Shown: positions 11,028-30,635 of the stretch, piece after piece
Layout of the letters: every line of letters starts with the position of its first letter
Position numbering within the stretch: position 1 is the first letter of the stretch
Origin: a virus
Taxonomy: Duplodnaviria; Caudoviricetes
Reading direction: 5' to 3' (one strand)
Virus record (IMG/VR): IMGVR_UViG_3300005325_000105
Coordinates: 1-35,011 of that record
Length of the DNA stretch: 35,011 nucleotides
Position numbers and translations under genes: made by a program
Notes under the pieces: generated by a model
Seen by the model: the letters and a program-made list of their open reading frames with translations, nothing else
The model's database searches: none
What the model was told of the DNA's origin: nothing

Positions 11028-11029
11028 TC

Positions 11030-13947: not shown

Positions 13948-14199
13948 ATGAACTTTTTCATCAAACTGGCCCTGAAGAAATTCTTTCGCAAATTTCTTTT
14001 TTCCGTCGGCGCCGCGCTCGTGGCCCTGCCTTTTTTCGTCAAGGGAATCCAGGATGGTTACATTGACCTCGATCAACTTAAACAGTGGGCTGACCTTACC
14101 GTCAACCTGCTGGTCGGCCTGGTCCTCATGGCCATCACCTATGCAGGCCCCCTAATCACCGAATGGTTGAAGAATAAAAAAATCACAACGACAAAATGA
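13948..14199 (+). CDS. holin-like two-TM protein (83 aa)
   Basis: AAGGAGG RBS before ATG 13948; two hydrophobic helices, basic N- and C-termini. Confidence 0.55.
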   Translation: MNFFIKLALKKFFRKFLFSVGAALVALPFFVKGIQDGYIDLDQLKQWADLTVNLLVGLVLMAITYAGPLITEWLKNKKITTTK

Positions 14200-15158
14200 A
14201 TATTTTCGGATTCACAACTCCTGTTCTTATAGGTAGGGCGACGGCATCCCTGCCGTGCCGTTCCTTTCCGGCTTTGTGCCTCTGTGCCTTCTGCCTTTGT
14301 GCCTTTCTGCGCGCCAGGGCTGACTCCATTTCCGTCTACGAGGAAAACGACTTCCTTGTCTCCGATGGAAAAGGCTCGAACGAAGACGGCTGGTATACCC
14401 AGGGCATGCAAATCCAATACGTGAACACAAACGATTGGGGACTGACACTCGGCCAGCAAATCTACACTCCGGAAAACAAAAACAGTCCTTTGCCGTCGCC
14501 CGGCGACCGGCCCTATGCCGGCTATCTGCACGCCGCATATTTTCAAAACATCCTCAAAGGCCAGCAGGACGATTATTTTAAAATTGACGCCGGCATCATC
14601 GGCCCTGCCGCATTGGGAAATGAGGCGCAAAACGGCTTGCATAAACTCTGTGGCATGGCCCTTGCAAAGGGCTGGAAATATCAGTTGCGGAATGAACCGA
14701 CGTTGAACGCTGCCTATTATAAATCTTTTTCTCATCGCTTCTGTCCGTGGTTTGAATACAAGCCTTTCGCGGGAGTAAATTTTGGTAACGTCCTCGTTGA
14801 CGCCGAACTTGGAAACTTTGTTCGGATGGGCTTACTTTCAAAATCATTCAATCCCACGATTTACTCCTTCAGTTCCGAAAACCGCAGGATGAAGGATTCA
14901 GATTTTTACTTTTACCTTTTCGCTGGTGTGGTCGGCCAAGCGATCGCTTACGACCACCTGCTTGATGGCAGTCTGTTCCAGGACGAACAGGTTACGGTCA
15001 AGCACAAACCTTTTGTCGCCAACGGCTCGGTAGGCGCCTGCGTCGGCATCTATGCGTTCGAGCTGACTTTCACGCATTGTGAAGTGACCGAGCAATGGCT
15101 CAGCCAGCCCGATCGCGATAACAAATTCGATTCGATCAAACTGACATATAAATTCTGA
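14196..15158 (+). CDS. lpxR: lipid A 3'-O-deacylase, LpxR family (DUF2219) outer-membrane beta-barrel
   Basis: Signal peptide; YEEND, D.WYTQG, GQQIYTP, DRPYAGYL, IGP...AQNGLH, GWKYQLRNE, LDGSLF; C-terminal Phe. Confidence 0.88.
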   Translation: MNIFGFTTPVLIGRATASLPCRSFPALCLCAFCLCAFLRARADSISVYEENDFLVSDGKGSNEDGWYTQGMQIQYVNTNDWGLTLGQQIYTPENKNSPLPSPGDRPYAGYLHAAYFQNILKGQQDDYFKIDAGIIGPAALGNEAQNGLHKLCGMALAKGWKYQLRNEPTLNAAYYKSFSHRFCPWFEYKPFAGVNFGNVLVDAELGNFVRMGLLSKSFNPTIYSFSSENRRMKDSDFYFYLFAGVVGQAIAYDHLLDGSLFQDEQVTVKHKPFVANGSVGACVGIYAFELTFTHCEVTEQWLSQPDRDNKFDSIKLTYKF

Positions 15159-15165
15159 GGAAATC

Positions 15166-16239
15166 ATGACAATCGAAAATTTAAGTTGCCTCTCCAACGA
15201 ATTTGCCGTCCAGGCCGACTGGCTCCGCATCCCATATGGCGATCATCCGCATTACACCGGCGCCATCCAGCGATTGACCCGTCAGACTGCCGAAGTCATG
15301 GCGAACGATTTCCATAGCTTCCGGTCGCGCCTTGGCCGCCTGTTCGGAGGTTTGCCCGTCTACATCGGCCATCCGGACGATCCCGAATTGGCAAATCAAT
15401 ATCAGGACAAAAAATCTTATGCCTGGCTCATGGATATGGATGCCCGCGATGATGGTCTTTACATCAAACCAAAGTGGAGTCCTCCGGGAGAAGAACTCAT
15501 TTCCAATGCCCATTACAAATGGTTCAGCCCGCGCTGGGGATGCAAAGCCTTGGGCAATGAAAACGGCAAGCGCACCGTCGCGCCGGTCCGCCTCATTTCA
15601 ATCGGTCTCACAAACAATCCGCAAATCGAGGGAATTCTCCCTCTCGCAAATGAAGAAATACCGGCATTGCCGGAGAAAGGAACCATGAAAGATAAAATCA
15701 TCAAATTGCTCGGCCTCTCCAACGAGGCCACCGAGGACCAGATACTCGCCGCCGCGACGGCCCTGAAAACGTCGAAGGATACGGCCGAGGTCACGCTGGC
15801 GAATGAGAAAACCCTGGTCAGTGCCGCGCAGGCCGCATCCACGGCAAAAGATTCTGAGATCTCAAATTTGAAGTCTCAAATCTCCGCTGCGACAACCAAC
15901 CTCGCCAACGAGCGCAAAGCGCGGATCGAAGCCGTCCTCGACAATGCCGTCGTTACCGGCAAAATCACGGCCGCTCAGCGTCCGCAGTGGGCTGCCGACC
16001 TCGCGGCAAACTTCGACGCCAAGCTCGTCGAACTTTCCAACGCCAAACCCGTTCTGAACACCAACTCCAGAACCCAGGGGCTGGGTGGCCGCAACAGCGA
16101 TACGGTTTCCCGTCAGGATAAAATCCTGACCCTCGTCAACGAAAAAATGTCCGCCGGTATGGATTATGATACCGCCTGGGGCGCCGTTAAAAAGGCCAAT
16201 CCCGCTCTCTTCGAAGAGCCCAAAGGAAAGGAGGGCTGA
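15166..16239 (+). CDS. Mu-like prohead protease I with C-terminal scaffold
   Basis: VYIGHP, YAW, KW, YKWFSP, SIGLTNNP motifs; Ala-rich coiled-coil C-terminus with GKITAAQ. Confidence 0.9.
   Translation: MTIENLSCLSNEFAVQADWLRIPYGDHPHYTGAIQRLTRQTAEVMANDFHSFRSRLGRLFGGLPVYIGHPDDPELANQYQDKKSYAWLMDMDARDDGLYIKPKWSPPGEELISNAHYKWFSPRWGCKALGNENGKRTVAPVRLISIGLTNNPQIEGILPLANEEIPALPEKGTMKDKIIKLLGLSNEATEDQILAAATALKTSKDTAEVTLANEKTLVSAAQAASTAKDSEISNLKSQISAATTNLANERKARIEAVLDNAVVTGKITAAQRPQWAADLAANFDAKLVELSNAKPVLNTNSRTQGLGGRNSDTVSRQDKILTLVNEKMSAGMDYDTAWGAVKKANPALFEEPKGKEG
15685..16239 (+). CDS. nested in-frame scaffold protein (Mu gpZ-like)
   Basis: AAAGGA RBS before in-frame ATG 15685 (MKDKIIKLLGL), as in the Mu I/Z arrangement. 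Confidence 0.65.
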   Translation: MKDKIIKLLGLSNEATEDQILAAATALKTSKDTAEVTLANEKTLVSAAQAASTAKDSEISNLKSQISAATTNLANERKARIEAVLDNAVVTGKITAAQRPQWAADLAANFDAKLVELSNAKPVLNTNSRTQGLGGRNSDTVSRQDKILTLVNEKMSAGMDYDTAWGAVKKANPALFEEPKGKEG

Positions 16240-16316
16240 GAAGAATAGAGATCAGCAATCAGTCAAATCCGTCCGATATGCCTGAAAAAAATCTTAACCT
16301 GAAAGGGAAAAAACCA

Positions 16317-16784
16317 ATGATCAGATTCCTCATCCATAAACTGGTGACGGCCATCAGTTGCCGCCATCTCATCTGCCTCAGCAATATTGCCGAAGGCACT
16401 CACGAAGATTCCATCACGAAGCTGGCCGATGCCGCCATCACCACCCGCTTCTCGTTGGTCAAGGCCGGCACCGATGCCGAACACATCGCCGCCTGCGGTG
16501 CCAATGACCTGCCCATGGGCGTCTGCCCGGATGAACCTTCCGAAGCGGAAGCTCCGGCGGCCGTGCAATTATTCGGCTGCGCAAAGAGCACCCGTAAAAT
16601 GGTTGCCTCTGAGCCGATCGCCGCCTTTGCGGAAGTCTTCACCGCCGCAAGCGGTAAAGTTCAGGATGCGCCCACGGTGGCCGGAACTTATTACCGCGTC
16701 GGTCGCGCCCTGCAGGCTGCCAGCGCAGATGGCGATTTGCTCGAAGTGGATCCGTATCCGCCCACGGCCTATATCGTCACCTAA
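16317..16784 (+). CDS. capsid decoration/cement protein (DUF2190-like)
   Basis: Between protease and capsid; small Ala/Gly-rich with VGRALQAASADGDLLEV motif. Confidence 0.75.
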   Translation: MIRFLIHKLVTAISCRHLICLSNIAEGTHEDSITKLADAAITTRFSLVKAGTDAEHIAACGANDLPMGVCPDEPSEAEAPAAVQLFGCAKSTRKMVASEPIAAFAEVFTAASGKVQDAPTVAGTYYRVGRALQAASADGDLLEVDPYPPTAYIVT

Positions 16785-16790
16785 CCGCTG

Positions 16791-16838
16791 CCGCTCTTCG
16801 ATCCCCTCCATCGGAGGGGTGCCCGAAGGGCGGGGTGG
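16791..16838. repeat. REP-like double hairpin, copy 1
   Basis: CCCCTCC-atc-GGAGGGG plus GCCC-gaa-GGGC; 46/48 identical to 20629-20676. Confidence 0.85.
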
Positions 16839-16882
16839 GTTTTGAACCACAAACAAAAAAAACTGAAAGGTAAAAAAAACAC

Positions 16883-17872
16883 ATGAAAGAACTCATCCTC
16901 TCGAACGTCGGGCCGGCCTTTTCCGCCGATACCCGAAACAACAGGCCGGGCGTCATCTGCCTGGCAAACGAAGAGCGGTTCACCGCCGCTTATTTCTCCG
17001 AACCTCTCACCGCCTATGCCATTGGCTGGAGGGATCCGGAAAACATCCAGGCCACCCTGGACGCCATTGCGCCGCCCGTCGAAGTCTCGCGCCGGTTTGA
17101 ATACAAATCGGCCACAAATGCCGAGGAATTCCTTTCCGAGGTTGACGATATTCGCGGCATTGGATCCGCCTTTAAAAAGGTGGAATATACCGGGTCAAGC
17201 GTGAACGCGAAGACCCTTAATAAAGGTCTGACGATCACTCTGGACCGCGATGAACTCGTCCCCGGCAAGGAAGAGCGCACCGTCGCCCGCCTCATCAGCC
17301 GCCTGAACCGCAGCGACCTGCGCCGCGCTGTCGCCGCCCTGATCGCCTCGGCCACAAATACCGGGAAAAACTATTATGGTGCAGATGGCGAAGATCCGGA
17401 CATGGATGTCAGATCCGATCTTGAAACCGGCGCGACTGCGCGCGGAGTTGGAAGCAACCTTGTGGTTTATGGCGCCACCGCCTGGGCCATACGCTTGGCC
17501 AGCCTGCGCGCTCAAAATCTCGCCGGCCAGGGCAGAAGCGCCACGTTGACCAGGGAAGAATTGGCTGATTTCCTTGGCGTTGACCGCATCGTGATCAGCA
17601 AGGAGCGTTATCAGTCCGGCAAGTCCACTAAGTCGGAAATCCTGGGCGCATACGTGCTCATGTATTACGCCTCGCTGATCGCCGATCAGGAAGATCCCAG
17701 CAACATCAAGCAGTTCTGGACTCCGACCGAATCCGGCCGCTTCCGCGTCTATCGCGAAGAGCACGCCAAGACGATCGACATCAGCGTCGAGCATTACAGC
17801 AACATCGTGCTTCCCAGCACGCTTGGCCTGCGCAAGTTCACGGTCACAAACACCACGCCTCCGGCAGGGTAA
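16883..17872 (+). CDS. major capsid protein
   Basis: 329 aa after protease and decoration genes, followed by a terminator; size and position fit an HK97-fold capsid. Confidence 0.8.
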   Translation: MKELILSNVGPAFSADTRNNRPGVICLANEERFTAAYFSEPLTAYAIGWRDPENIQATLDAIAPPVEVSRRFEYKSATNAEEFLSEVDDIRGIGSAFKKVEYTGSSVNAKTLNKGLTITLDRDELVPGKEERTVARLISRLNRSDLRRAVAALIASATNTGKNYYGADGEDPDMDVRSDLETGATARGVGSNLVVYGATAWAIRLASLRAQNLAGQGRSATLTREELADFLGVDRIVISKERYQSGKSTKSEILGAYVLMYYASLIADQEDPSNIKQFWTPTESGRFRVYREEHAKTIDISVEHYSNIVLPSTLGLRKFTVTNTTPPAG

Positions 17873-17931: not shown

Positions 17932-18471
17932 CAAAAAAGAAAGGAAATTCATCATGTTCGTAAAACTGAAAATTATCTGCTTCATTTTTGCCTTCTGCAT
18001 TCTGCCTTCTGCCTTGGTTCAGGCCTCCGACGCCATCGGAATCCCGAGTTCGCTGAATGATCGCCTGGCCGCCGCCGAACTGGCGATCGCTGTCAGCACG
18101 AATGATCTCGCCATCCAGGCATCCACCAACGCGCTCAATACGCGCCTTGGAACGGCCGAGACTACTCTGGCCACCGCCACGGGCAACGTTGCCACGCTCC
18201 AGGGACTGATGACGACAACCACCGGCAATGTCGCTGCCGTACAGTCCGCGACCAACGCGCTGAATAGCCGGATCATCGCCCAGGCCGATACTAATGTAGG
18301 GCTTGTCCCAAAAGCGCGAAATCTGGGAAATACGATCTTAAATTTTATGGCGGATAGCAAGGAAATTGTATCAGCGGTAAGAGCTCTGTGTTATGACGGC
18401 AGCGCGGATAAAATCAGCCTATTTTGAATAGTTCCCGGCTGATGAAGGAAAAAACCTGGGGAGTTTTAACA

Positions 18472-19959
18472 TCAAGCGGCTTTTTCTTTAGCCTGTTTTT
18501 TCGTCAGGCGGGCTATAACCCAAAGGTTGTGCGCCAGCACTGCCCAAGCCACTCTTAATGAACGGCCGGCGAACCCCTTGGCTGGCAGCGGATCGCCGAT
18601 GAAATTAATTTTGATAATGCCAATACGGCCTTCGGTCTGGGCCCGGCGGGTCTGCTCTTTCACAAAACGCGGTTTTCTTCTCTGGCGTTGTAGTTGCAGC
18701 GGGTCTCTGGCGGCAACGGCATTAAACCATTTTATATCCGTCAGTCGGCCTTGATTATCTGCGCTGTCATATCCGCGGTCGCCGGCCAGGGAGATTGCGG
18801 AAGCGTCGCGCGGAAGCAGGCCGCCAAAGTTTTTTTGCAGCCGGCGCGTGCAGCCGGGCAATAATCCGGCATCAGCCGGAGCTTGTTTTTTGAAAAGCTC
18901 ATAATCCACGATCAGCCCTTGCGCCTGTTCACAGATCATCAGCGTGTTGCCGAATTCCACTTCAGCGCGCGCCTTACCACGCACCAGCACGTGAATATCC
19001 GGCTCATACAAACTCAGGATTTTTTCCGCGTTCGCCACGGGCCGCGCGCCGATGATTCTTTCATGCGCCTGGCGCATGGCTTCCGGCAACTGCTCAAGGA
19101 CGTTTCGCATGCGTTTCAAAACCTGTTCCGTCTGCCGCCGGGTCCAGTCCGTTTCAGACCAGCGCGTGTCTAAAAGATCATAATAACGTTCCCCATGTTT
19201 GCGGATAACTTTTGTCAGCTTCTTCAGCTTGCGCAAAATCATTTTTCTCGCCTTGGCGCTATCCGGCCGGCGCCGGCACTGGGTCATCTCTATGCATAAG
19301 GAGTTGATCCGCCGCATCAGCAGCTCCGGCGCCATAATCCGGTGTTTAAGCCCATGCTTCCGAATCAGAATAATGGCCGACAGCAATGTCCCCGCGCCAT
19401 CCCGCAATAGCGTCCAGTCCACCGGAAAATGAATATTGGCCGGCACACAGGTGCTGTCGAGAAAGAACCGATCCAAATCAATCGCGCTTTCCAAGCCCAC
19501 CTTCTGCGCCGCGTCTCCGGCGGCAACATAACGAAGCAAGAGCGTATTCAATTCCTTGAGTTCTTGCGGCGTGATCATGCGTTCATATCTTTGCAGGGTG
19601 CTTTTCGCCGGAACCTTCACAACTTCCAGCTCGTCAATCCGACAAAACCACTGCAACAAATCGCTCTCCGCCATACAAACTGCCATCCCGCGCAGATCGT
19701 CGCCAAGCAGCATTCTGGCCAGCGTGCAACGCAACGCCCGCACGGCGTGTTTCTGTACCGTCTGCCTGCGGCGACCGCTCAAACTTCCCGCCGCCTCGGC
19801 CAGTTCAAGCTTTTTCTCCACAAACCTTTTCTCTATCCCAGTAACTGTCAACGCCTTGTTGATCCGCTCCAAAATACGCCGCCTTTCACGATAATCGAGG
19901 TTACCGACAATTACCCGTAATACCGGACTTAAGTGTTGCTGATACGCCATCTCTTGCAT
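18472..19959 (-). CDS. IS5-like DDE transposase
   Basis: FLDSTCVPANIHFPVD, KILSLYEP...RGK...EFG, GDRGY, R...EGRIG..K motifs. Confidence 0.9.
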   Translation of the reverse strand: MQEMAYQQHLSPVLRVIVGNLDYRERRRILERINKALTVTGIEKRFVEKKLELAEAAGSLSGRRRQTVQKHAVRALRCTLARMLLGDDLRGMAVCMAESDLLQWFCRIDELEVVKVPAKSTLQRYERMITPQELKELNTLLLRYVAAGDAAQKVGLESAIDLDRFFLDSTCVPANIHFPVDWTLLRDGAGTLLSAIILIRKHGLKHRIMAPELLMRRINSLCIEMTQCRRRPDSAKARKMILRKLKKLTKVIRKHGERYYDLLDTRWSETDWTRRQTEQVLKRMRNVLEQLPEAMRQAHERIIGARPVANAEKILSLYEPDIHVLVRGKARAEVEFGNTLMICEQAQGLIVDYELFKKQAPADAGLLPGCTRRLQKNFGGLLPRDASAISLAGDRGYDSADNQGRLTDIKWFNAVAARDPLQLQRQRRKPRFVKEQTRRAQTEGRIGIIKINFIGDPLPAKGFAGRSLRVAWAVLAHNLWVIARLTKKQAKEKAA

Positions 19960-20052
19960 ATATTTCCTTTCGCGCTCTTTTGTTTCCGGACGTCCCCGCT
20001 TGAGACATGCCTAATAACATGCCATAGCGGCAAAACTTATCAATCGTTTTTT

Positions 20053-20370
20053 ATGAAAAATATCAAACCGATCGTCAGACGTTTGAAAGAACTCCAGCGC
20101 GAACTGGCGTGTTTGGGACCCATGATGCGCGGATCAGTGGTCAGGCTCGGCCCTTACAAACATATTTGGTTCTCGCTTAATAAGGACAAGAAAACGCGGC
20201 TTGTTTATCTCGGCGCCGCACGCGAGCAAGCGGCCAAACTGTGTTCCGACAACTACAAAAAATTACAGGCGATTGTCGAGGAAATGACGTCGCTGAACAT
20301 GGATTTACTGAAGCAGCATCTCGAACCGGAGAAGTGTCTCGAAGATCACGGAAAAAACTCGGCGGGATGA
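20053..20370 (+). CDS. IS accessory protein, DUF6788-like
   Basis: 105 aa; MMRGSV...TRLVYL...NYKKLQAIVEEM pattern; lies inside the IS, divergent from the transposase. Confidence 0.65.
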   Translation: MKNIKPIVRRLKELQRELACLGPMMRGSVVRLGPYKHIWFSLNKDKKTRLVYLGAAREQAAKLCSDNYKKLQAIVEEMTSLNMDLLKQHLEPEKCLEDHGKNSAG

Positions 20371-20628
20371 ATTATAAGATGCGTTTTTAGGGCTTTTTGC
20401 CGTTTTTCGCGTCTTATATTGTAGTCAAAATCACGATCGGAACCTTTATTGACCGGCCTTTCGTCGCTCTGGGACAGGCTCTAATGTAACCAGCACAGTC
20501 ACATTGTACACGCCGCGCTTCGTCGGCGATACCCTGGTTGGCGGCGCCGGCGCCGGCACAAATGCCGTCTGGATTTCAAAAGGCGCCACAACCAACGACT
20601 GGGTCGCGATCAAACCTTAACTTTATCC

Positions 20629-20676
20629 CCGCTCTTCGATCCCCTCCCTTGGAGGGGTGCCCGAAGGGCGGGGTGG
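20629..20676. repeat. REP-like double hairpin, copy 2
   Basis: Near-identical to 16791-16838; differences confined to the first loop. Confidence 0.85.
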
Positions 20677-20749
20677 ATTCTTGAATCGGCAATCGCAAAT
20701 CTTCCGCCTCAAGCGGATCCGCTAAAGGCGGAAAAATCGAAAATTGATT

Positions 20750-21193
20750 ATGTCCTGGATCACCATAACCGAATCAAACGTGCAGACCAAACTGGCCGGG
20801 GCGGAACTCACCGCCCTGAAATCCTTCGCCCTGGCCAGCGGTCAGACCAGTCCATTGACCGAAATCATCGAACAGGTCGTGGATGAAATACGCGGCTATG
20901 TCGCCGCCTGCGCCAGGAACACGTTGGGCGTTGCCGGCACGATTCCAGCAAAATTATTGAGCGCCGCGCTGGCCATGATCCGTTATCGGCTCGCCACGCG
21001 TCTGCCGATCAAGTCGCTTCTAACCGATGACCGCGTCAAGGAAAACGAGGCTGCCATCCGCCTTCTTGAACAAGTCGCCGCCTGTAAATTCGCCATCGAG
21101 GATCCTGTTTCCGGCGATCGCTCCGGCGTTTCCGTTGAACAAGTCTCAACCCCGACCCGCATCGCAACCAGGGAAAAACTCGCAGGCTTATGA
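20750..21193 (+). CDS. head-tail connector (Mu gp36/DUF1320-like)
   Basis: EIRGYV...IRYRL...R...AIRLLEQVA pattern; first neck position after capsid. Confidence 0.8.
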   Translation: MSWITITESNVQTKLAGAELTALKSFALASGQTSPLTEIIEQVVDEIRGYVAACARNTLGVAGTIPAKLLSAALAMIRYRLATRLPIKSLLTDDRVKENEAAIRLLEQVAACKFAIEDPVSGDRSGVSVEQVSTPTRIATREKLAGL

Positions 21194-21233
21194 ACATAAT
21201 GCGTCCAATCCGTCCGATATGTCCTATTAAAAA

Positions 21234-21716
21234 ATGAGCGACGAACTTACATTCGCAATTTATCCCCTCCAGGCCGCCGTCAAGACGCGCTTGGAAGCGC
21301 ATGCTTATTTTTCCGACATCACCGTATTCACCGAGGAACAAGGCGACCTCGATTCCGAGATCGAGCGCGCCCTCGGAATGCTCACCGAAAAGGGCGATAA
21401 AATCGGCGCCTGCGTCGTCATCCTCACGCCGATCGCAAAATCCAAATCCCCGAACGCGCCCGGACCGCTCCTTGATGATTTTCTGTTTTCAATCAACGTC
21501 CTTGAAAATGTCCTGGTCAATCAGGGTGACGACGGCACAAAAAAACACGCCATCCAGATCGTGGAACTTATTCTCCGCCATCTCCATCGCTGGACCGTGC
21601 CCAACACCAATGCCGCGCTCCATGTCGCCGCCAATGCCTTTACGATCACGAATTCCGATCCATTAACCTATCAGGTCAATTTCGTCACGTCGCTTTGTCT
21701 TAAACCGGAATCTTAA
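21234..21716 (+). CDS. tail terminator/neck protein (gp37-like)
   Basis: 160 aa between connector and tail tube; ILRHLHRW..P motif. Confidence 0.55.
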   Translation: MSDELTFAIYPLQAAVKTRLEAHAYFSDITVFTEEQGDLDSEIERALGMLTEKGDKIGACVVILTPIAKSKSPNAPGPLLDDFLFSINVLENVLVNQGDDGTKKHAIQIVELILRHLHRWTVPNTNAALHVAANAFTITNSDPLTYQVNFVTSLCLKPES

Positions 21717-21818
21717 AGGTGGGGCGAGGCCTCCGGCCGATCCGTTCTTTCATGAATCCAAAATCGGCAATCGAAAATCGAAAATAAAAAAATCCGCCCC
21801 TGGCGGAGAAAGGAAAAA

Positions 21819-22754
21819 ATGCAATTCAATCCCGTTAACTTCATCGCCGGCCCGGCCATCGTCACCTTCGATTCGAACGTCATTTATACAAAGGATGATA
21901 TCGTCGTCAAATGCAACCCGGAAACATGGGATGTCATAACCTCACGTTACGGTAAAATTGACGTGCGCCAGAAAAGTCTCTCCGCCGAAGTCAGCCTTAA
22001 TCCTGTCGGCATGGTCGAAAACTTGACCAAATATTTTCCCTATTCGCTGAGCGACGTGGGCAAATCCATTTTCCCGGCCACGGATAAGCCGCTCGTTATC
22101 CACTCAATTGCCGGCACAAAATTCACGTTCGCCCGCGCCGCCGTAAACAAAATGCCGCCCTTAAAACTTGCCGCCACGGATACTTTCTTCGGCGGCATGT
22201 CGTTCCTCTGTCTGCGCAAATCCAATGCCGATCCTGCCGCCGCCGATTCTTTCGTCAAGGTCGAATCCTCTGCCTTCTCTGATGCGAGTTTCGATCCGAC
22301 CAAGATTACGTCTCCCGGTTATACCGCCGCTTATGGTTCCTCGCCATACGATGCCCTTGAATCCGTTGATGGTTTCAATGTCGAAATCGGCATGGAAATT
22401 TCGCCGAAATATATCGATCGTTTCGGCATGATCAGCGCATATCTCAAGAGTCTCACCGCCCGCGCGCGATTCGTTCCAACCGGCCTGACCGAGGCCCAGT
22501 GGGCCACCCTGGTCGCCCTCGATGGCGCCAGCGCGATCCTGCCCGGTCAGTCACAATCCAATGCCGGCATTGACTTGGTCATCACCGGAGGCGCCACTCC
22601 GCTCGCAATTTCGATCACGCTAAATAAGGCAGGATTAGTCGGCCAGGGACTGGCTTTTGGCGAAGCCCCCCGTCTCAGCGAGCTTGAATTCGTCGCTCAA
22701 GCTACTTTCACCAACGGCGTCGCTGATCCGCTCTTCACATTCGCGGTTGCTTAA
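21819..22754 (+). CDS. major tail (tube) protein, probable
   Basis: AAAGGA RBS; 311-aa beta-rich protein beginning GPAIVTF; positional inference. Confidence 0.6.
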   Translation: MQFNPVNFIAGPAIVTFDSNVIYTKDDIVVKCNPETWDVITSRYGKIDVRQKSLSAEVSLNPVGMVENLTKYFPYSLSDVGKSIFPATDKPLVIHSIAGTKFTFARAAVNKMPPLKLAATDTFFGGMSFLCLRKSNADPAAADSFVKVESSAFSDASFDPTKITSPGYTAAYGSSPYDALESVDGFNVEIGMEISPKYIDRFGMISAYLKSLTARARFVPTGLTEAQWATLVALDGASAILPGQSQSNAGIDLVITGGATPLAISITLNKAGLVGQGLAFGEAPRLSELEFVAQATFTNGVADPLFTFAVA

Positions 22755-22786
22755 ACTTTCGCGTCAATTCGTGTTTCGCGGGCTAA

Positions 22787-23200
22787 ATGAAAATCCGAAT
22801 CTACAACTCAACCGAAAACTTCTGGCTCTCCGAGGAAGGCGAGCTCGCCCCGGATTCCCTCCGGGTCAACGGCGAGCGGGTAATCCAGCCCGCCGATTTG
22901 CTTCGGGCCGATTCGGCCGTATTTTTCAATCGAAAGAACGCGAAAACGGTCATCACCTTTTCCGTCACGCGCGAGCATGCTTCCGTCCGCGTAGCTGAAG
23001 CGTACTTATTGCAGCATGAGGCCGAAATTCCGGATAGCGGAATAGTCGAATTCGTTTCCTACGACGGAGGCGGCGGTGAGGATTCTTTCTATTTTCCGAC
23101 CGGCTTCCTCAAGACCACGGACGCCTCATATAACGGTTGCACCACGTTCCATTCTTACACCCTGATCGGCGGCCGCATCACCACGGTGAAACCAACATGA
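22787..23200 (+). CDS. hypothetical tail structural protein (distal-tail-like)
   Basis: 137-aa beta-rich ORF in the tail module. Confidence 0.5.
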   Translation: MKIRIYNSTENFWLSEEGELAPDSLRVNGERVIQPADLLRADSAVFFNRKNAKTVITFSVTREHASVRVAEAYLLQHEAEIPDSGIVEFVSYDGGGGEDSFYFPTGFLKTTDASYNGCTTFHSYTLIGGRITTVKPT

Positions 23201-23886
23201 GCAATCCTGTTCTAGATTATAAACGCGTCCGCATCCGTTTCGATGCCGATAAATTCCAACTGGAACGGGATATTCTGGCATCGGCAACTCCCGCCATGTA
23301 TCGCGGCAATGATGCAAGTTTCGAGGTCGTCATATATTGGAAAGATCAGATAATTAACGCCACAAACATCGCAACATTGACCTTTTCCATCTGGACAATT
23401 GATTGTAAAAGTCGGAAAGCCACAAAGACCATCACCGCTGCCGAAATCACTGCAATTCCTTCAGAAGCTGACTGGAGTGGTGGCACTGCCCAGCATGCCG
23501 TCTTCCCCTTTACCGGGCAGGAGATGAACTGGGCTTTAACTTCCCCAAAAACGGAAGAAACTTTTATGCTGGTTCTTGCCGGCGTCACAAATCACACGCC
23601 GGGCCGTAATATCACTTATGGACGTTCAAGCCTGAAAATAATTGAAGATGCCGAAGGGAATGCCGCCGAATATGTGGTCAACGATCCGCTCTATTACACC
23701 CAGATCGATGCCGACGGCCGCTTCGTCCAGCTTCAGGGCGATGGCTATACATTTCGTGCCAAAAAAGGTACGGACGGAAATGTGTATCAGCAATTTTATT
23801 TTCAGGAGGAAGGCAAATGGCGAAGCAGAATACCCAGAATCGTTGGTGGCCAACCAAACATCACCTGGGGCGAACCGGAGGACTGA
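23197..23886 (+). CDS. hypothetical baseplate/fibre-anchor protein (BppU-like N-terminus)
   Basis: ATGA-coupled start 23197; YRGND..F.V, FTGQEMN, YYTQIDADGRF motifs seen in fibre-attachment proteins. Confidence 0.5.
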   Translation: MSNPVLDYKRVRIRFDADKFQLERDILASATPAMYRGNDASFEVVIYWKDQIINATNIATLTFSIWTIDCKSRKATKTITAAEITAIPSEADWSGGTAQHAVFPFTGQEMNWALTSPKTEETFMLVLAGVTNHTPGRNITYGRSSLKIIEDAEGNAAEYVVNDPLYYTQIDADGRFVQLQGDGYTFRAKKGTDGNVYQQFYFQEEGKWRSRIPRIVGGQPNITWGEPED

Positions 23887-23888
23887 CT

Positions 23889-26800
23889 ATGAAGAATTTT
23901 CGATTTTGGATTTCCGATTTTCGATTAATAGGTAGGGCGGCGGCATCCCTGCCGCGCCGTCTGTTTTTCATTCTGTCTTTGTGCCTCTGTGCCTTTGTGC
24001 CTTCTGCCTTCGCCACGCTATCCATTGAAAATGGTAGCGTGTCCAACCTCACCCGCATCTCCGCCATCGTCTACGGCGAACTCATTTCAACCAACGGATC
24101 CGGCACAAACCCGGTCTGCACGCTTTACTATGGCACTTCCGATGGTCTTACCAATTCGTCCAACTGGTCCTATTCCGTCTCTCTTACCAATGTGGGAATC
24201 GGCGTTTTTTTCAACAACCTCACCGGCCTTGCACCGGCGCAGAAATACTATTTCAACAGGTCTGCAACCGAGGGCACAAACACCACCTGGTCTTCTTCCT
24301 CCTCTAATTTTTGGACCCTCGCCGGCGCTCCGACCAATGCCTATCCGGTATCCACCAATGGCATTGCCCTGATCGTCTCCACCAACGGCGATCTCATGGC
24401 TCCGCTCAACTTCTTTTCCGCCAACATGGATAAAATAACCAACGCCGGTTTGGTCTCTTCCTTTGAAATCTCAAATTTGAACTCTCAAATTTCCGAGACT
24501 CTTACCAACGCCGTTGACGGCGGCCGCGAAGGCGAGGGCTCCGTCACGGTCATCAATCGCCAAATCATCATCAAGCATCCCAGCCCGCTTGCCATCACCG
24601 GCGCTGTATCAAGGGTTTTGTCTGGTCCCGGCATAGGCATCACACCGGAAGGCGGCCAGGGCGATGTATCCTTCTTTATCTCCAATTCAATCCTTGAAAA
24701 AGTTTCCGCCGCTTTGACCAACGAGCCGGAATTTTCCGCCTCCCCGGCCGGAGGAATTACCGGAGCGGATGTAACCAATTTTAGGACCGCTTTTCTTTGG
24801 GGCAATCATGCGCTTTTTGGCTACCTCACCGGCACGACCGGCACGAATTATTTTTCGCCCTTGGGGCATAACCACGACGGCTCCTATGCCTCCATCGGCC
24901 ATCTTCACAGCGGCACCTATTCGCCGACCAATCATTTCCATAGCTGGACAAATCAATTCACACCAACAAACTCTTCAATCTTCGTGCGCAGTCCGACTAA
25001 TACGGCCTCCACGAATAAAGTCCTTTACTCCCTTGGCAACGGCGTGAACGTCTGGCTCGATCCGTTCGCGCTCGGCAGCGTGACCAACTGGGTCAACATG
25101 CCCACCAACACGGCCACTAATGTTTACACGTTCCAAAAAATCAACGTCGGCTCCAACATCGTCGAATCTCCGGAGTTGATAAACATCAAGGGAACCGATC
25201 GCGCAAAGATCAGGTACTCCACGGTCGGCGGCAGCGTCACATCTTCCGTTTCCATGACTCCGCCAGGCGCGATAACTTTGTACACGAACACGCTAACACC
25301 CGCGTTGATGGGGTGGAATCAGGCCGGACCTCAATATGCATACACAAATCTTTATATGTCCGACAATCCCGCCTGGTGCTGGTGGGCAGGCATAACGCAG
25401 GCGGTTGCATACAGCAGCATCTTACGTCTCGATTTCTGGGGCTTCGACATTTCTTTGGACAACACGGTTATCACGGGCATAAAGGTTGAAATGGAAGGCT
25501 ATTCGGAGAGCACAAATTATCTGTCTGCGCGGATATTTAACAACGGATATACCTCTTCCGTCGTTACGGTGGAGTGTCCCGGTGATGATGCTTATATCGG
25601 CAATCCGTCATCACACACAAATTGGACAACTTACGCCCTTGGCGATTCAAATACGATCTGGAACCTGAATGCATTATCGGCCGAGGAAATCAACGCAAAC
25701 GACTTCGCTATCGATTTCTGGGTTCGCCGCGCCGGCGGCTATTACTCCGATTTTGCGTGCAAGAACGTAAAAGTCATCGTGTACTACCAGTCAGAAATCA
25801 TTTCTATGACGGCAGGCGCGACGTCAAGTAACACGTGGGACATTACCGACGAGCGCAATGGAACCCTTGCCTCATTTTCCGCGTCCGGGATTGCTTTGGA
25901 AAAACCCGTCACTGTCCCCAGCCTCATCCTCGGCGGCGAAACCCGGACCAACTGGCCTGACTCCGACTATGCCTCTGGAATCTCAAATCTGAACTCTCAA
26001 GTTTTGGTTGTCTCCTCCCGCGTGGATCTCGCCGAAGGTAGTATTGTCACCAATGTCTCTGAAATCTCAAATCTGGCATCTCAAGTTTCCGGTCATGTCG
26101 CTGCCACCAATCCGCACGGCATCACGCCAGGCATGATCGGTGCCGTGTCGACGAACGATGTCAGCGTGACCAACGCCCGGCCGCCCACTACGCATGGTCA
26201 CTCCTATACCGAGGTCACAAATGCCCCTTGGCTCACGAATGAGACATATCTGGGCACGATCACGGGCGCGACAATCGTGACCGGAGCAGCCCCGGCAATC
26301 GTGACCAACGGCGGAATTTTGGGGATTACTGTGCTGGCCGGCGGGGGCGGCGGATCGATTACATATGGCACAACCGCCGCAACTGCTTATCGCGGGGATT
26401 GGGGCACGACCGTAAGCAATGCTGTCAACGGCAAAGCAAGCCAGTCCGATTATGCAGCCACAAGCAATCAGGTTGATTTGCATGCTTCACAGATTGCGGC
26501 TCTTTCCGCCTCAAACAACACGTGGTCTGCAGATGTTAATGGTAATGCGTTTTCTCTCACGAATACGGCCGCGATTAAAATTAAAGCAAATCGCAATCCG
26601 GTAAAAGCGGCGGCGCTGCCTCAGCCGCGCTCGCGTTTATCCGCTGCCAATCATGTGGGGTACGCTTATATCTTCGGCGGACTAGACGGGACGGCAAAAA
26701 CGAATAATTGGCGTTTTGACGGTTCGACCATCACCGAAGTAAAGGGATTGCCGGCTCCACGTTATGATATGGCGGCGGCGTATGTTCCAAACGCTTTGTT

Positions 26801-27872
26801 TGCGGTTGGCGGCAATGACGGAGATGGGCCAAAAACAAACGTATATATGTGGAACGGCAGCGCATGGCTGGAGTACCCCGGACTTCCGGTGGCAAAAGAT
26901 AAGATCGCCATGGTCGCCGGCGACGATGGCAAAGGGTATCTTGTGGGTGGTGGTGCTACCAATGCGTATCAGTATACGGCTGGTGGGAATTTTGTGAATA
27001 TTGCCGGATTACCAGACTCGATAGGTTCCAGTCGGAGGCCGGTTATTTTCAATTTGCACGGAAAAGTTACCGTCTTGCATGAGTTGTCCATGTATACTTT
27101 GCAAGGGACGACGAATTGGACGAAAGAGTATTTGATGCCGGGATATTTGTACATGTCCGATGGCGCCGCCTCGGTTGTTGGCGACTATGCTTACGTATCT
27201 CTGGGCGGCGACAGTTCCGAACTGTACCGTTTTGACGGGACAAACTTTACGCAAGTTGCATCGTTGCCGGAAACGGTCAACCTCCTTGCCGCTTCTCCCC
27301 TTGGCAATTCCGCTTATATGATTGGCGGGAATGCGTCGGATAATTCAAAAATTTTCAAAATCAATTTCAGCGATCCCCGACTTCTCCAGGAATGGCAAGA
27401 CACGAACGGATCCACGATTGCTGAATTGTACGACAACGGCAACATGACTGTTGCCGGGCCGTTGACGAACAATGCTGGGTATTACGGCAACGGCCCGGGG
27501 CTGACGAATCTGCCAAACGCCCAGGTAATAAAATATACCGGCAATACGACCACCACGGCCGGGAAGATTTATCAGTGGGTCACCAACGCTTGGGTTGCGG
27601 CAATCTGCACGAATGAGGTGCAATGTAACCGCATGGTCGCTGCGGCGATTGGCACAAACTCCACATCAGACGGTATGATGCTGATGGGTGAAATGACGGT
27701 TACCAATGATACCCTTTCTCCCGGCGCCGGAATTTTCGTATCGGCAACAGCCGGCGAATGGACGCAAACCGCGCCGACAAACTCAGGTTATATTTTGCGC
27801 CTGATCGGCTACGCGACCGAGATAAACAAGATTTTCATCAAGCCCGACGGCGTTTGGGGGACCGTACAATGA
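23889..27872 (+). CDS. large mosaic tail-fibre/adhesin-like protein with signal peptide, FN3-like domain, fibre motifs and Kelch repeats
   Basis: GGAGG RBS before ATG 23889; LCLCAFVPSAFA signal; LTGLAPAQKYYF; WGNH, HxH, NPH, TAYRGD fibre motifs; YIFGG/FAVGG/YLVGG/YMIGG Kelch blades. Confidence 0.75.
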   Translation: MKNFRFWISDFRLIGRAAASLPRRLFFILSLCLCAFVPSAFATLSIENGSVSNLTRISAIVYGELISTNGSGTNPVCTLYYGTSDGLTNSSNWSYSVSLTNVGIGVFFNNLTGLAPAQKYYFNRSATEGTNTTWSSSSSNFWTLAGAPTNAYPVSTNGIALIVSTNGDLMAPLNFFSANMDKITNAGLVSSFEISNLNSQISETLTNAVDGGREGEGSVTVINRQIIIKHPSPLAITGAVSRVLSGPGIGITPEGGQGDVSFFISNSILEKVSAALTNEPEFSASPAGGITGADVTNFRTAFLWGNHALFGYLTGTTGTNYFSPLGHNHDGSYASIGHLHSGTYSPTNHFHSWTNQFTPTNSSIFVRSPTNTASTNKVLYSLGNGVNVWLDPFALGSVTNWVNMPTNTATNVYTFQKINVGSNIVESPELINIKGTDRAKIRYSTVGGSVTSSVSMTPPGAITLYTNTLTPALMGWNQAGPQYAYTNLYMSDNPAWCWWAGITQAVAYSSILRLDFWGFDISLDNTVITGIKVEMEGYSESTNYLSARIFNNGYTSSVVTVECPGDDAYIGNPSSHTNWTTYALGDSNTIWNLNALSAEEINANDFAIDFWVRRAGGYYSDFACKNVKVIVYYQSEIISMTAGATSSNTWDITDERNGTLASFSASGIALEKPVTVPSLILGGETRTNWPDSDYASGISNLNSQVLVVSSRVDLAEGSIVTNVSEISNLASQVSGHVAATNPHGITPGMIGAVSTNDVSVTNARPPTTHGHSYTEVTNAPWLTNETYLGTITGATIVTGAAPAIVTNGGILGITVLAGGGGGSITYGTTAATAYRGDWGTTVSNAVNGKASQSDYAATSNQVDLHASQIAALSASNNTWSADVNGNAFSLTNTAAIKIKANRNPVKAAALPQPRSRLSAANHVGYAYIFGGLDGTAKTNNWRFDGSTITEVKGLPAPRYDMAAAYVPNALFAVGGNDGDGPKTNVYMWNGSAWLEYPGLPVAKDKIAMVAGDDGKGYLVGGGATNAYQYTAGGNFVNIAGLPDSIGSSRRPVIFNLHGKVTVLHELSMYTLQGTTNWTKEYLMPGYLYMSDGAASVVGDYAYVSLGGDSSELYRFDGTNFTQVASLPETVNLLAASPLGNSAYMIGGNASDNSKIFKINFSDPRLLQEWQDTNGSTIAELYDNGNMTVAGPLTNNAGYYGNGPGLTNLPNAQVIKYTGNTTTTAGKIYQWVTNAWVAAICTNEVQCNRMVAAAIGTNSTSDGMMLMGEMTVTNDTLSPGAGIFVSATAGEWTQTAPTNSGYILRLIGYATEINKIFIKPDGVWGTVQ

Positions 27873-28819
27873 GATGTTTTTTGATCATAACTTTTATCGG
27901 ATTGCTTGGCCGGTGTTATGCCGGCGATACCAACGAATGGATCGAAGTTCGGGGATTACGTGTGAATTGCTGGTGCTCGCCCATGGCGGTACTGAGGGGA
28001 AAAATATATATCGCTGGCGGCCCCGATGGCGCGCGAACAAACCTTTTTGTTTTCGACGGCACAAACTGGTCACAAGGGCCGAAGCCCCCGGGGAACGTAC
28101 AATGGTGCGGCGGTGCGGTTCTTAACAATAAAATTTATATTTCTTCTCCGTGGGATAATCACACAAATTTTTGGTCGTTTGATGAGACAAACTGGGCTTG
28201 GGAACCGGCGGCGCCTAATGGCGGGCAGCAGGGCATCGGCCAGAATAATGCCGCTGTTTTTAACGGCGCATATTATCAGGTCGGCGGGCACGATGGAGTC
28301 ACAGACGAACGAACCAATGTTTATAAATTCAACGGCACGTCTTGGGCGGAAGTGATGGGTCTGCCTGTTAAGACGCGTATGTCTGCAGTTGCTGTTTTCC
28401 GGGACAGACTTTATTCGGTTGGTGGATATAACCAAAAGACGAATGTGTATGTTTACGACGGGACAAACTGGACTTGGGGTCCTGCTTTTCCAGGCGGCGA
28501 TAACGGTGGTTTGGCTACTAATAACGAGGATCGGCTAATTTTCATTCAAGGGAATGACTCGGTGGGAACGTGGACAAACGTCTATTCATTCGACGGGACA
28601 AACTGGACTACGGCGCGAGGGACAGCACATAGTCGCAGGGCCTTATGGTCAGCCGTGAATTTTAACGGAAAGGTATATGCGATCGGCGGATATTGCACAA
28701 ACGTAGAATATCGCTTGCCGGACGCTGCGTCCCCGATAACTGCTCTCTATCTCTACGGCGTCAAAATCAGCAAACTCTGCGGCGTCACTATCAATAAATT
28801 ATGCGGGAGGGGACAATGA
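27869..28819 (+). CDS. Kelch-repeat beta-propeller protein with signal peptide
   Basis: ATGA-coupled start; MRCFLIITFIGLLGRCYA; repeats KIYIAGG...FDGTNW; C-terminal KISKLCGV-TINKLCG repeat. Confidence 0.82.
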   Translation: MRCFLIITFIGLLGRCYAGDTNEWIEVRGLRVNCWCSPMAVLRGKIYIAGGPDGARTNLFVFDGTNWSQGPKPPGNVQWCGGAVLNNKIYISSPWDNHTNFWSFDETNWAWEPAAPNGGQQGIGQNNAAVFNGAYYQVGGHDGVTDERTNVYKFNGTSWAEVMGLPVKTRMSAVAVFRDRLYSVGGYNQKTNVYVYDGTNWTWGPAFPGGDNGGLATNNEDRLIFIQGNDSVGTWTNVYSFDGTNWTTARGTAHSRRALWSAVNFNGKVYAIGGYCTNVEYRLPDAASPITALYLYGVKISKLCGVTINKLCGRGQ

Positions 28820-29052
28820 GGTTTCTGGACTGGATCGGTTATTTGGAGATGCACCGGCTTTGCTTTGTTACTTGGATAAAGGTGCGACTGGTGCATGGGA
28901 AGATTGTCGGAAAATATCGACCATGTCCGGGCGACGACTGGAGCACGGGAGAATGTTTTTTTTATTCACTTCTTTCGTTCGGAATCGTCTTTTTGTCGTT
29001 ATACGTTTGCGCCGGTATTGCAAAGGCGGTTTTTGAAAGTTTGGCAAGATGA
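28816..29052 (+). CDS. small membrane protein
   Basis: GGAGG RBS, ATGA coupling, C-terminal TM helix. Confidence 0.55.
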   Translation: MRFLDWIGYLEMHRLCFVTWIKVRLVHGKIVGKYRPCPGDDWSTGECFFYSLLSFGIVFLSLYVCAGIAKAVFESLAR

Positions 29053-29168
29053 AAACAGCAGGCGATATATTTCTGGTGGTTATGTTGTGCATGATATTTC
29101 CGCTGTTCATTTTACTGGCGGTGATGGTAGGAGTTTTCGAGCAAATATTTTTAAGGAAGGTGGAATGA
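29049..29168 (+). CDS. 39-aa membrane peptide (not in ORF track)
   Basis: ATGA-coupled; MKTAGDIFLVVMLCMIFPLFILLAVMVGVFEQIFLRKVE; ends 1 nt before next ATG. Confidence 0.55.
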   Translation: MKTAGDIFLVVMLCMIFPLFILLAVMVGVFEQIFLRKVE

Positions 29169-29169
29169 G

Positions 29170-29970
29170 ATGATCTCTTTTTCTTCACAAATTCCTTTTA
29201 AGGAGGCCCTTTCTTCCCTCCGTTCCAAGGGCCTCCTCCCGACTTCCCTTTCCTCCGCCGATATGCAAAAGCTCGACGCCGAGATCCGCAGCAGAAGTCT
29301 CTTCTCCGCCCGCACCACGAATGCAGGCTATTTGCAAGAGGTCAAAGACCAGGTCGACGATCTCCTGCAGGGAGAAACCAACGAAGCAACCATGCGCCTG
29401 AAACTCAAGGAATCCCTGCGCGCAATTTCATATGATCCAGTCCAATCCGGCGTCGAACCAGGCACTTTGAAAGACCTTTCTTCTGATCCCCGTCTTAACC
29501 TAATAATCCAGATGCAATCTGATACCGCTTTGGGCTACGGGAAATTTATTCGCGACCAGGATCCCGCCGCGCTCCTGGCCGCCCCCGCCCAGGAACTCTT
29601 CCGCGCCGAGGCCCGAAAAGAACCCCGCAACTGGCCCCAACGCTGGATGGATGCCGGTGGCCAGTTCTATGACGGCCGTATGATTGCTCCAAAGAATGCA
29701 GAAATATGGACGGAAATCTCCGCTTTCGGCCAACCATATCCGCCCTTCGATTATGGTTCCGGCATGTGGGTCCGCGATATCCTCCGCACCGAAGCCATCG
29801 CCCTCGGCATAATCGCGCCTGACGAAATGGTCGAACCTTCAAACATTCAAACCTTTAACACGGGTTTTCAACCTTCCATTGCCGGCCTCGATCCTGATCT
29901 GCAACAAGCCGTCCTGGCCTCCATGGGCGACATGGTCGAATTCATCGGAGGAGTTTTACATCTAAAATGA
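29170..29970 (+). CDS. MuF-like (gp30) head morphogenesis protein
   Basis: PFKEAL..L..K, RSLFSA, RLNLII, W...PYPPF..GSGM; followed by gpG-like gene as in Mu. Confidence 0.75.
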   Translation: MISFSSQIPFKEALSSLRSKGLLPTSLSSADMQKLDAEIRSRSLFSARTTNAGYLQEVKDQVDDLLQGETNEATMRLKLKESLRAISYDPVQSGVEPGTLKDLSSDPRLNLIIQMQSDTALGYGKFIRDQDPAALLAAPAQELFRAEARKEPRNWPQRWMDAGGQFYDGRMIAPKNAEIWTEISAFGQPYPPFDYGSGMWVRDILRTEAIALGIIAPDEMVEPSNIQTFNTGFQPSIAGLDPDLQQAVLASMGDMVEFIGGVLHLK

Positions 29971-30635
29971 GCGTTGCCATTAACATCAACATCCGCGATC
30001 GCGCCACCCCGGTAATCAACCAGCTTGACTCAAAACTCATTGATGACGCCGGCAAGCACACCGTCGGCACTTCCGTCATGCGCCAGATACTCGATCACCT
30101 CACCACTCTGGATTCGGAGCGTCCAAACGCGCTGGGCGGCCGCCGCACTCATTTCTATGCCCAGGCCGGCAAATCCACGCACTACGAAATCACCGATACC
30201 GGCGCGGTTGTCTCAATCGATCACATCGGCATCGCCCAGCGCTATTTCGGCGGAAAAATCGAGCGCGAGGATGGCGGTCCTTTGACCATCCCCGCTCGGG
30301 CCGAAGCCCATGGTCGCCGCGCCCGCGAGTTCAATAACCTTGTCATGCTCTGGGGCCGCAACGGCCCTTACGCCCTGGCCGAACGCGAGTCTATGGATCT
30401 CCGCCTCCGTCGCAGTACAAAAAAAATAAAAGGCGGAGGTAAAGCAGTCTATAAATATTTTGCCCACGGCGAAGAACGTGGCGGCGGCATCTTCTATTGG
30501 CTCGTCAAATCCGTAACCCAGCAACCCGATCCGACCGTCTTGCCCGAAATGTCCGCAATGGAAGAAAACGCTTTTTCCGCCGTCACTAATTACATCAACA
30601 ACATTCTCAAACTCGAATCCCGTATTAATTCATGA
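29967..30635 (+). CDS. Mu gpG-like virion morphogenesis/tail completion protein
   Basis: Follows MuF; AQRYFGGKI...LTIP, WLVKSVT motifs. Confidence 0.7.
   Translation: MSVAININIRDRATPVINQLDSKLIDDAGKHTVGTSVMRQILDHLTTLDSERPNALGGRRTHFYAQAGKSTHYEITDTGAVVSIDHIGIAQRYFGGKIEREDGGPLTIPARAEAHGRRAREFNNLVMLWGRNGPYALAERESMDLRLRRSTKKIKGGGKAVYKYFAHGEERGGGIFYWLVKSVTQQPDPTVLPEMSAMEENAFSAVTNYINNILKLESRINS

Follow-up and report, generated by a model that had tools for sequence, protein, structure and literature searches.

The window analysed here, a complete virus record of 35,011 bases (IMG/VR record IMGVR_UViG_3300005325_000105), holds what is, by its genes, a Mu-like phage. Three genes in its late operon begin with leaders resembling Sec signal peptides: one that follows the capsid gene (the post-capsid gene), a fibre gene encoding 1,327 amino acids, and a gene for a Kelch protein. 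Taking these leaders together with those of related prophages, we regard it as fairly probable that the fibre-type proteins of this lineage are exported, mature in the periplasm and join the particle at lysis. Searches against Pfam and PHROG identify a MuB-like ATPase, a Mu portal, Mu protease I and gp36, with a weak match to muF (E 0.005), together with a CI-like repressor, a large terminase, a cement-like protein and the major capsid protein. The labels gp37-like, tail tube, Dit-like, muG, tape-measure protein (TMP) and hub were assigned by gene position, none of these genes having a family match, and the 675-residue product of the gene adjoining the MuB-like gene, considered as a MuA-type DDE transposase, matches nothing in Pfam, PHROG or NCBIfam. 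Because no sheath was matched, the tail is read as non-contractile. The closest relative lies in a Kiritimatiellaeota metagenome-assembled genome (locus L002), whose capsid protein is 82% identical to that of the window and whose class we take, partly from GTDB, to be Kiritimatiellae; the host is likely to be a bacterium of this class.

All three leaders have a positively charged n-region, a hydrophobic h-region and a small-residue cleavage site, as judged by a home-made n/h/c rule and by eye, and all three starts are well placed. The post-capsid gene starts at an ATG (17954) with a purine-rich, Shine-Dalgarno-like stretch 5' of it, and its leader reaches a top 9-residue hydropathy of 3.19. 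The fibre gene starts 2 nucleotides after the preceding stop (ATG 23889; hydropathy 3.0), and a longer open reading frame (ORF) from 23817 would overlap the gene upstream. The Kelch gene (ATG 27869; hydropathy 2.96) overlaps the stop of the fibre gene by 4 nucleotides and, to judge from this overlap, is translationally coupled to it. By comparison, the core late proteins (the small and large terminase subunits, portal, protease I, cement, capsid, gp36, gp37-like, tube, Dit-like, BppU-like, muF, muG, TMP and hub) reach values of 0.19-1.88. The mature parts of the three proteins have no further membrane segment, with no 19-residue stretch above 1.51. As a check on the rule, lambda Lom was called positive and all eight fibre proteins of the enterophages Mu, T4 and lambda were called negative. 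The observation of the earlier note on this DNA that these proteins carry signal-type leaders holds, and so do the starts on which it relied: reading on in frame, the first further ATG comes at codon 86 of the post-capsid gene, 170 of the fibre gene and 39 of the Kelch gene; GTG and TTG alternatives are present, the later of which would cut into the conserved mature N-terminus of the fibre. Support is weakest for the leader of the Kelch gene, as no orthologous stand-alone gene with a leader was found among the 35 loci described below. Translocation and cleavage of the three proteins are likely, as predictions from these leaders.

Table 1. Positions in the window of the three leader-bearing genes, their parts and the late genes around them.
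Feature	Position	Strand	Remarks
Cement-like protein and major capsid protein	16314..17872	+	signal-less core; Pfam/PHROG
Post-capsid gene, 5' piece	17954..18298	+	24-residue signal-like leader (17954-18025) and predicted coiled-coil stalk
Insertion sequence	18299..20481	-	transposase 18472-19959; 7-bp target duplication 18292-18298/20482-20488; inverted ends 10/12
Post-capsid gene, 3' piece	20489..20620	+	C-terminal knob, split off by the insertion sequence
gp36 adaptor, then gp37-like, tail tube, Dit-like	20750..23200	+	all signal-less; last three named by position
Signal-less BppU-fold protein	23197..23886	+	229 residues; short C-terminal beta domain; directly 5' of fibre
Fibre leader	23889..24014	+	42 residues, signal-like; partly DNA repeats common to the LpxR-like gene
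Fibre mature N-terminus	24015..24425	+	FN3-like domain and conserved short motif (~residues 152-179); candidate docking segment
Fibre Kelch beta-propeller region	26664..27473	+	Pfam Kelch; KLHL20 in PDB; 26-34% identical to downstream Kelch protein
Fibre C-terminal domain	27492..27872	+	fibre-terminal domain of wide occurrence; distant resemblance to phage cement (PF09956)
Kelch protein	27869..28819	+	316 residues; 18-residue signal-like leader; Pfam Kelch; PHROG 16120 virion structural protein, E 9e-9

To see the leaders in their wider setting we compared 35 loci: the window, L001, L002, L010 and 31 regions taken from 30 genomes that were positive for the tube profile, which matched 33 of 401 genomes of the class of the L002 genome (G001 was already represented by L002, and G062 and G394, on short contigs, were left out). 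The rule was written after the first four loci had been viewed and before the other 31. With the fibre slot defined as the ORFs from the Dit-like or BppU-like gene to the next core gene, and the post-capsid slot as those between capsid and gp36, the rule called signals on 75 of 103 fibre-slot ORFs and 16 of 21 post-capsid ORFs, on 8 of 19 between gp36 and gp37 and 1 of 2 between gp37 and tube, and on 13 of 346 core virion ORFs; wrongly called ORFs and a number of tape-measure genes without a label are counted in the slot totals, and clear leaders that have an acidic residue, as in L060, escape the rule. As a class, the leaders are conserved at particular positions in the late operon and, these few calls aside, are absent from core genes. 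Most relatives have short classical leaders. The leaders of orthologous fibres are unrelated to one another (20-64 residues), whereas the mature parts are 58-62% identical, with conservation beginning immediately after the predicted cleavage site, and the post-capsid gene likewise combines a variable leader with a conserved mature N-terminus. The trait is lineage-wide, in about 30 related prophages. Each scan of viral contigs gave a single relative, and a search of cultured phages gave no match to the capsid protein and one weak match to the Kelch protein. Domains found on the signal-bearing slot proteins of the relatives are those of tail collar, collagen, FGE-sulfatase, LamG, BNR, Kelch and tail-fibre PHROG type, although most of these proteins match no domain.

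These proteins also share a compositional feature. In 99 signal-bearing slot proteins we counted 739 Thr-Asn dipeptides where shuffled sequences predict 227 (3.25-fold), and in 346 core proteins 238 where 235 are predicted (1.0); the reverse pair, Asn-Thr, is not enriched (0.89). Of the 30 loci with signal-bearing proteins, 26 show an excess of 2-fold or more, and in the window it amounts to 47 against 12.2 in the fibre, 12 against 2.1 in the Kelch protein and 4 against 1.5 in the post-capsid protein. It is missing from two other exported proteins of the window, encoded by an LpxR-like gene (1 against 0.7) and a gene at 7424-7969 (1 against 0.4), and from the eight Mu, T4 and lambda fibre proteins (29 against 30.5; 0.95). 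Among host proteins, sampled over 100-240 kb per genome, those of G001 show it at 1.92-fold when signal-bearing and 0.99 otherwise, and the host proteins richest in the pair look extracellular by eye. We regard the excess as a candidate glycosylation mark, with sugars likely to be attached at Thr-Asn. Two known types of glycosylation were rejected as its cause. N-glycosylation of the STT3/PglB type does not fit an N-x-S/T frequency of 1.02-fold, and STT3 exceeded its cut-off in 6 of 61 class genomes and was not found in G001. O-glycosylation in Bacteroidota uses the motif D-(S/T)-X, and the form D-(S/T)-(A/V/I/L/M/T) stands at 0.75-fold. Of 101 class genomes, 99 have a PF11028 (TMEM260-like) gene that exceeds the cut-off, as does the Bacteroides control; human TMEM260, of the same family, is described as an O-mannosyltransferase (PMC10214176).

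How an exported fibre might be attached to the particle is suggested by the gene directly 5' of the window fibre. An AlphaFold model of its product (23197-23886; mean predicted local distance difference test score, pLDDT, 83) found 9mt4, 9m8o, 4v96, 9c39, 3uh8 and 6v8i as its top Foldseek matches, with Z scores of 9.7-11.1 (VIA). The predicted N-terminal beta-sandwich is that of BppU (ORF48) from lactococcal phage TP901-1 (4v96, 3uh8) and its counterparts in Staphylococcus phage 80alpha (6v8i) and NF5 (9m8o), although identity to these baseplate proteins is only 5-11%, and the gene sits after a Dit-like gene and before the fibre, as in BppU-type baseplate systems. Pfam BppU_N gave no match (E 0.01 for the window, 0.001 for relatives), a result that distant members may escape. 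Since chains of the Bas63 connector (9mt4) and the Sf14 neck (9c39) rank equally as fold matches (Z 10.9-11.1), attachment at a neck or collar is as possible as at a baseplate, and we read the protein as a likely cytoplasmic anchor of one or the other kind. Bas63 and Sf14 are myophages of enterobacteria, and the parts of the material on them that we consulted describe no export. A signal-less BppU-like gene is present in 14 of the 35 loci. In 13 of these the next gene has a conserved short motif near its mature start, as it has in L050; the motif alignment comprises 14 relatives picked by eye, with or without the FN3 domain, and leaves out L064, which lacks the motif. This N-proximal motif is perhaps a docking segment, and we treat it as a candidate. 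A complex prediction that paired three copies of the BppU-like C-terminus with three of the fibre N-proximal segment scored 0.01 against a mark of 0.32, in a setting where the controls also stayed unfolded, and speaks neither for nor against docking.

In 18 loci, likewise picked by eye, a domain (alignment A8) comes immediately behind the signal, and here the fold itself would be exported. The one member modelled, from L054 (pLDDT 89.5), matches the 80alpha baseplate fibres, TP901-1 BppU and the NF5 baseplate protein at Z 9.9-11.1 and root-mean-square deviations of 2.5-2.7 over 109-120 residues; the 80alpha and TP901-1 proteins are its best matches (Z 11.1), and the first non-phage structure stands at Z 7.6. 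A sequence search of the PDB with this domain returned weak matches, the best of them to GspB Siglec domains (E 0.002), and a search for signal-plus-BppU domains found matches in 23 of 401 genomes of the phylum. An exported protein that begins with a predicted virion-anchor fold is, to our mind, the strongest sign linking export with attachment, although it comes from relatives and not from the window. To our knowledge, BppU-type proteins assemble in the cytoplasm without signals, whereas here a predicted signal is found on the partner of the anchor or on the anchor domain itself.

The window fibre consists of an FN3-like first domain, a stalk, a Kelch propeller and a C-terminal domain. Its FN3-like domain matches multidomain proteins of Verrucomicrobia type, one of which (P0004) has a signal-like start. 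The C-terminal domain belongs to a family of 1,504 representatives, found mostly at protein ends, and is 36% identical to an annotated Flavobacterium phage tail fibre; it resembles Atlas clusters made up wholly of viruses (score 0.95; PF09956 on 14-19% of members), and PF09956 was matched by 5 of 25 members of the family. The whole fibre has no PHROG match, and the PDB sequence search with the C-terminal profile returned nothing under E 0.1. Domains and gene position together mark the gene as that of a putative tail fibre, for which presence in the particle and receptor binding are predicted. Beyond the Kelch gene lie two short ORFs with hydrophobic segments (28816-29173), and similar small membrane-protein genes follow the fibre slots of relatives. 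After the hub are two small signal-less genes encoding 7 Cys each (34211-34603 and 34610-35011; no NCBIfam match), which may encode a tip or receptor-binding part made in the cytoplasm.

The post-capsid gene, probably that of a head or neck fibre, has weak PHROG matches to a virion structural protein (E 0.002) and a tail needle (E 0.007), and an Atlas search with its intact homologue led to viral clusters (score 0.85), which we take as a lead only. The earlier note had described a coiled-coil protein here; its leader stands, but the ORF at 17954-18427 is not a real product, its final 42 codons being read-through into an insertion sequence whose transposase matches ISNCY/IS5 models below their cut-offs. 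The displaced 3' piece is identical at 36 of 43 residues to the C-terminus of the intact 110-residue L002 homologue (L002:11070-11402). The window copy is thus probably broken, and its protein is probably missing here. Two 51-nucleotide palindromic elements, 94% identical and resembling repetitive extragenic palindromes or terminators, lie 3' of the cement gene (16791-16841) and of the post-capsid gene (20629-20679). A second signal-bearing post-capsid family occurs among the relatives (L001:7586-7978, L044:5349-5738, and L045, L047, L051, L052, L055, L056, L062, L064, L065 and L072); its mature part of about 110 residues looks all-beta by eye and has no Pfam or PHROG match, and we consider it a candidate exported head decoration.

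Precedents for signal-bearing virion proteins exist among cultured phages of Cellulophaga. In the parts of their genomes that we examined, using GenBank annotation, classical leaders are present on 3 of 12 proteins of phi18:3 carrying the note 'experimental MS/MS proteomics' (gp085-087), and on 4 of 4 (gp101-104) and 4 of 5 (gp091-094) structural proteins similarly annotated from tandem mass spectrometry (MS/MS) in phi19:1 and phi10:1. As in the window lineage, these genes are clustered among late genes. The phages themselves differ, in that they infect Bacteroidota, belong to the Pachyviridae and Assiduviridae and are not Mu-like; tblastn found no match between them and the window capsid or Kelch protein, and the Thr-Asn excess is inconsistent in phi18:3 gp085-087 (0.69, 1.87 and 0.92). 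That such proteins were detected time and again, in three phages from two families, speaks for true virion parts rather than co-purification. The term 'signal peptide' does not occur in the main text of PMC8776804. Mu and JBD30, a Mu-like siphophage, share MuB-like ATPase, Mu portal, protease I, cement, gp36 and muF-like genes with the window. Mu S has no leader, and the main text on JBD30, in which fibres and receptor-binding proteins attach to distal-tail, upper-baseplate and hub proteins, is likewise free of the term (PMC11445458). Two Bacteroides phages have been described with signal peptides, which the consulted part of the report does not tie to virion proteins (PMC5723332), and we found no account of exported fibres of tailed phages in a literature search that covered subscription journals thinly.

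Putting these elements together, we propose that the head and tail core is built in the cytoplasm from signal-less proteins, and that the fibre-type proteins would pass through Sec, lose their signals and fold in the periplasm. There a host enzyme, possibly the TMEM260-like protein, could O-glycosylate them at Thr-Asn sites. The BppU-fold protein, which has no signal, would be the docking site of the window fibre, with the conserved motif near the mature start of the fibre perhaps making the contact, and relatives would export the BppU-fold domain itself. Docking would take place at or after lysis, once the inner membrane opens, as the last assembly branch; in T4, fibres can be added last, to finished particles. 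Of the export-then-assemble pathway put forward in the earlier note, the export half is well supported by comparison, through variable leaders, conserved mature N-termini, a signal-less core and the Thr-Asn excess, and the assembly half indirectly, through the BppU-fold domains behind relatives' signals, the BppU-fold gene of the window and the Cellulophaga annotations. More tentatively, and with somewhat less than even confidence, we suggest that a whole tailed-phage lineage divides its morphogenesis in this manner, with a cytoplasmic core and with fibres and head appendages that are exported by Sec, coated with glycans at Thr-Asn and clipped to BppU-type anchors at lysis, and that the Cellulophaga phages do likewise.

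Several points weigh against export followed by assembly. The signal calls come from our own rule and from reading by eye. The post-capsid gene of the window is broken, the first domain of its fibre is of an FN3-like type common to host-type multidomain proteins, and the fibre C-terminus matches the phage's own cement only weakly (profile probability 3.6%), as do the cytoplasmic and signal-borne BppU-like domains each other (3.4%). The fibre slots of relatives also contain TPR, sigma-70 and membrane proteins, which are unlikely fibres. The Thr-Asn excess falls below 2-fold in 4 of the 30 loci and is seen in the host proteins of only two of five genomes (G001 1.92 and G083 1.99; G307 1.11, G236 1.0 and G037 1.1), and the PF11028 gene is so nearly universal in the class that it is not attributable to the motif. 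Mass spectrometry of phage preparations may include co-purified proteins, and the hub and the two Cys-rich signal-less genes could supply host recognition without exported parts.

The rival that we take most seriously, though we think it rather unlikely, is the secreted adhesin or decoy already named in the earlier note: the exported proteins would never join the particle, and would serve as adhesins, as decoys that mask receptors, or as lysogenic-conversion cargo in the late operon, like lambda lom. The host-type FN3 domain, the Kelch, LamG, BNR and TPR domains of the slot, the insertion tolerated by the post-capsid gene and the genes after the hub that may encode cytoplasm-made receptor-binding proteins would all suit such a role, and the window has other exported non-fibre genes, the LpxR-like gene and that at 7424-7969. 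Those two, however, lack the Thr-Asn excess of the three slot proteins. Lambda lom is itself a signal-bearing non-fibre gene within a tail region, between J and orf-401, which makes it comparable in position to the window genes, but Lom is annotated as a host outer-membrane protein, whereas the window proteins have fibre stalks, virion-type domains and no membrane anchor. Free secretion also sits poorly with a BppU-fold domain immediately behind the signal in 18 relatives, with the arrangement in the window, where a BppU-fold gene without a signal is followed by just one fibre gene and that one bears a signal, with slots fixed in about 30 loci and with the Cellulophaga precedents. Nor do promoter and terminator scans, which stayed at chance level (14 promoter-like sites against 11.6 expected), speak for it.

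Much less probable is that the leaders are not cleaved Sec signals at all, but uncleaved membrane tethers or by-products of repeat expansion, with fibres that fold in the cytoplasm. The window fibre leader does overlap 7-mer, palindromic and 8-mer repeats that recur at other sites, the LpxR-like gene among them, long leaders made of repeats are present in several relatives, and the rule called a few core genes. However, the L002 orthologue has a plain leader of 20 residues, so the repeats do not explain the trait, and most other relatives have short leaders of classical type. Two of the repeats (D1 and D15) also build the leader of the LpxR-family protein, and an outer-membrane protein of that family must be exported. 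Conservation that sets in right behind the predicted cleavage site, and a Thr-Asn excess that tracks the signal and not the fibre class, argue in the same direction. Least probable of all is an exported fibre that acts as an envelope tether or release aid, binding exiting particles and being shed before the next infection: export joined to a virion-docking fold would suit any contact at the envelope, and small membrane-protein genes do follow the fibre genes of the window and its relatives, but the mature parts lack a transmembrane segment and the distal domains, which vary and are of lectin or adhesin type, are of a kind suited to recognising a host.

Other features of the window stand beside this argument. 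The 7-mer tandem repeat families occur on both strands, within genes and at gene starts (11028-11073, 12573-12618, 21756-21801, 23895-23929, 15846-15883, 24455-24492 and 25967-26088). The LpxR-family gene (14196-15158, + strand; Pfam E 5e-62) lies inside the head operon and may be lipid A-modifying cargo. A Hydrolase_2 cell-wall hydrolase with endolysin PHROGs is encoded within the early transposition operon (5115-5543, - strand), which bears on the course of lysis, and Pfam and PHROG scans gave no endolysin match in the late operon. The muF-like and muG-like genes (29170-30635) lie 3' of the fibre slot, unlike in Mu, where they come after the portal; this order is common among relatives. Next to the repressor, a gene at 6758-7393 (+ strand), labelled muF by its profile, encodes a protein that is rich in Cys at its N-terminus and resembles muF in its C-terminal region. 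Between portal and protease are unannotated genes of 280-310 residues (window 12921-13844, L002:6785-7705, L001:3797-4633), and L002 and L043 have there a gene that looks patatin-like by eye. A 42.8-kb metagenome contig (L004) is identical to the window across 20,933 bases, and its extra length may contain flanking host DNA. Among the sequencing runs listed, one DNA run, possibly the source, contains the window, and no RNA run does.

Tailed-phage particles are considered to be completed in the cytoplasm. The components described here, a Mu-like phage, a BppU anchor, a fibre and Sec, are all of known kinds; the export route would be new. Since cultured Cellulophaga phages have signal-bearing virion components annotated from MS/MS, the question is directly testable. 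If the proposal is true, calls of signal peptides wrongly drop proteins from virion annotations, and the parts with which the phage recognises its host could fold in the periplasm, be glycosylated by the host and take up domains from secreted host proteins, while the final assembly step would be tied to lysis. In the excess of Thr-Asn there may be a glycosylation signal of a kind not yet described, and tailed virions of this lineage could then be glycosylated.

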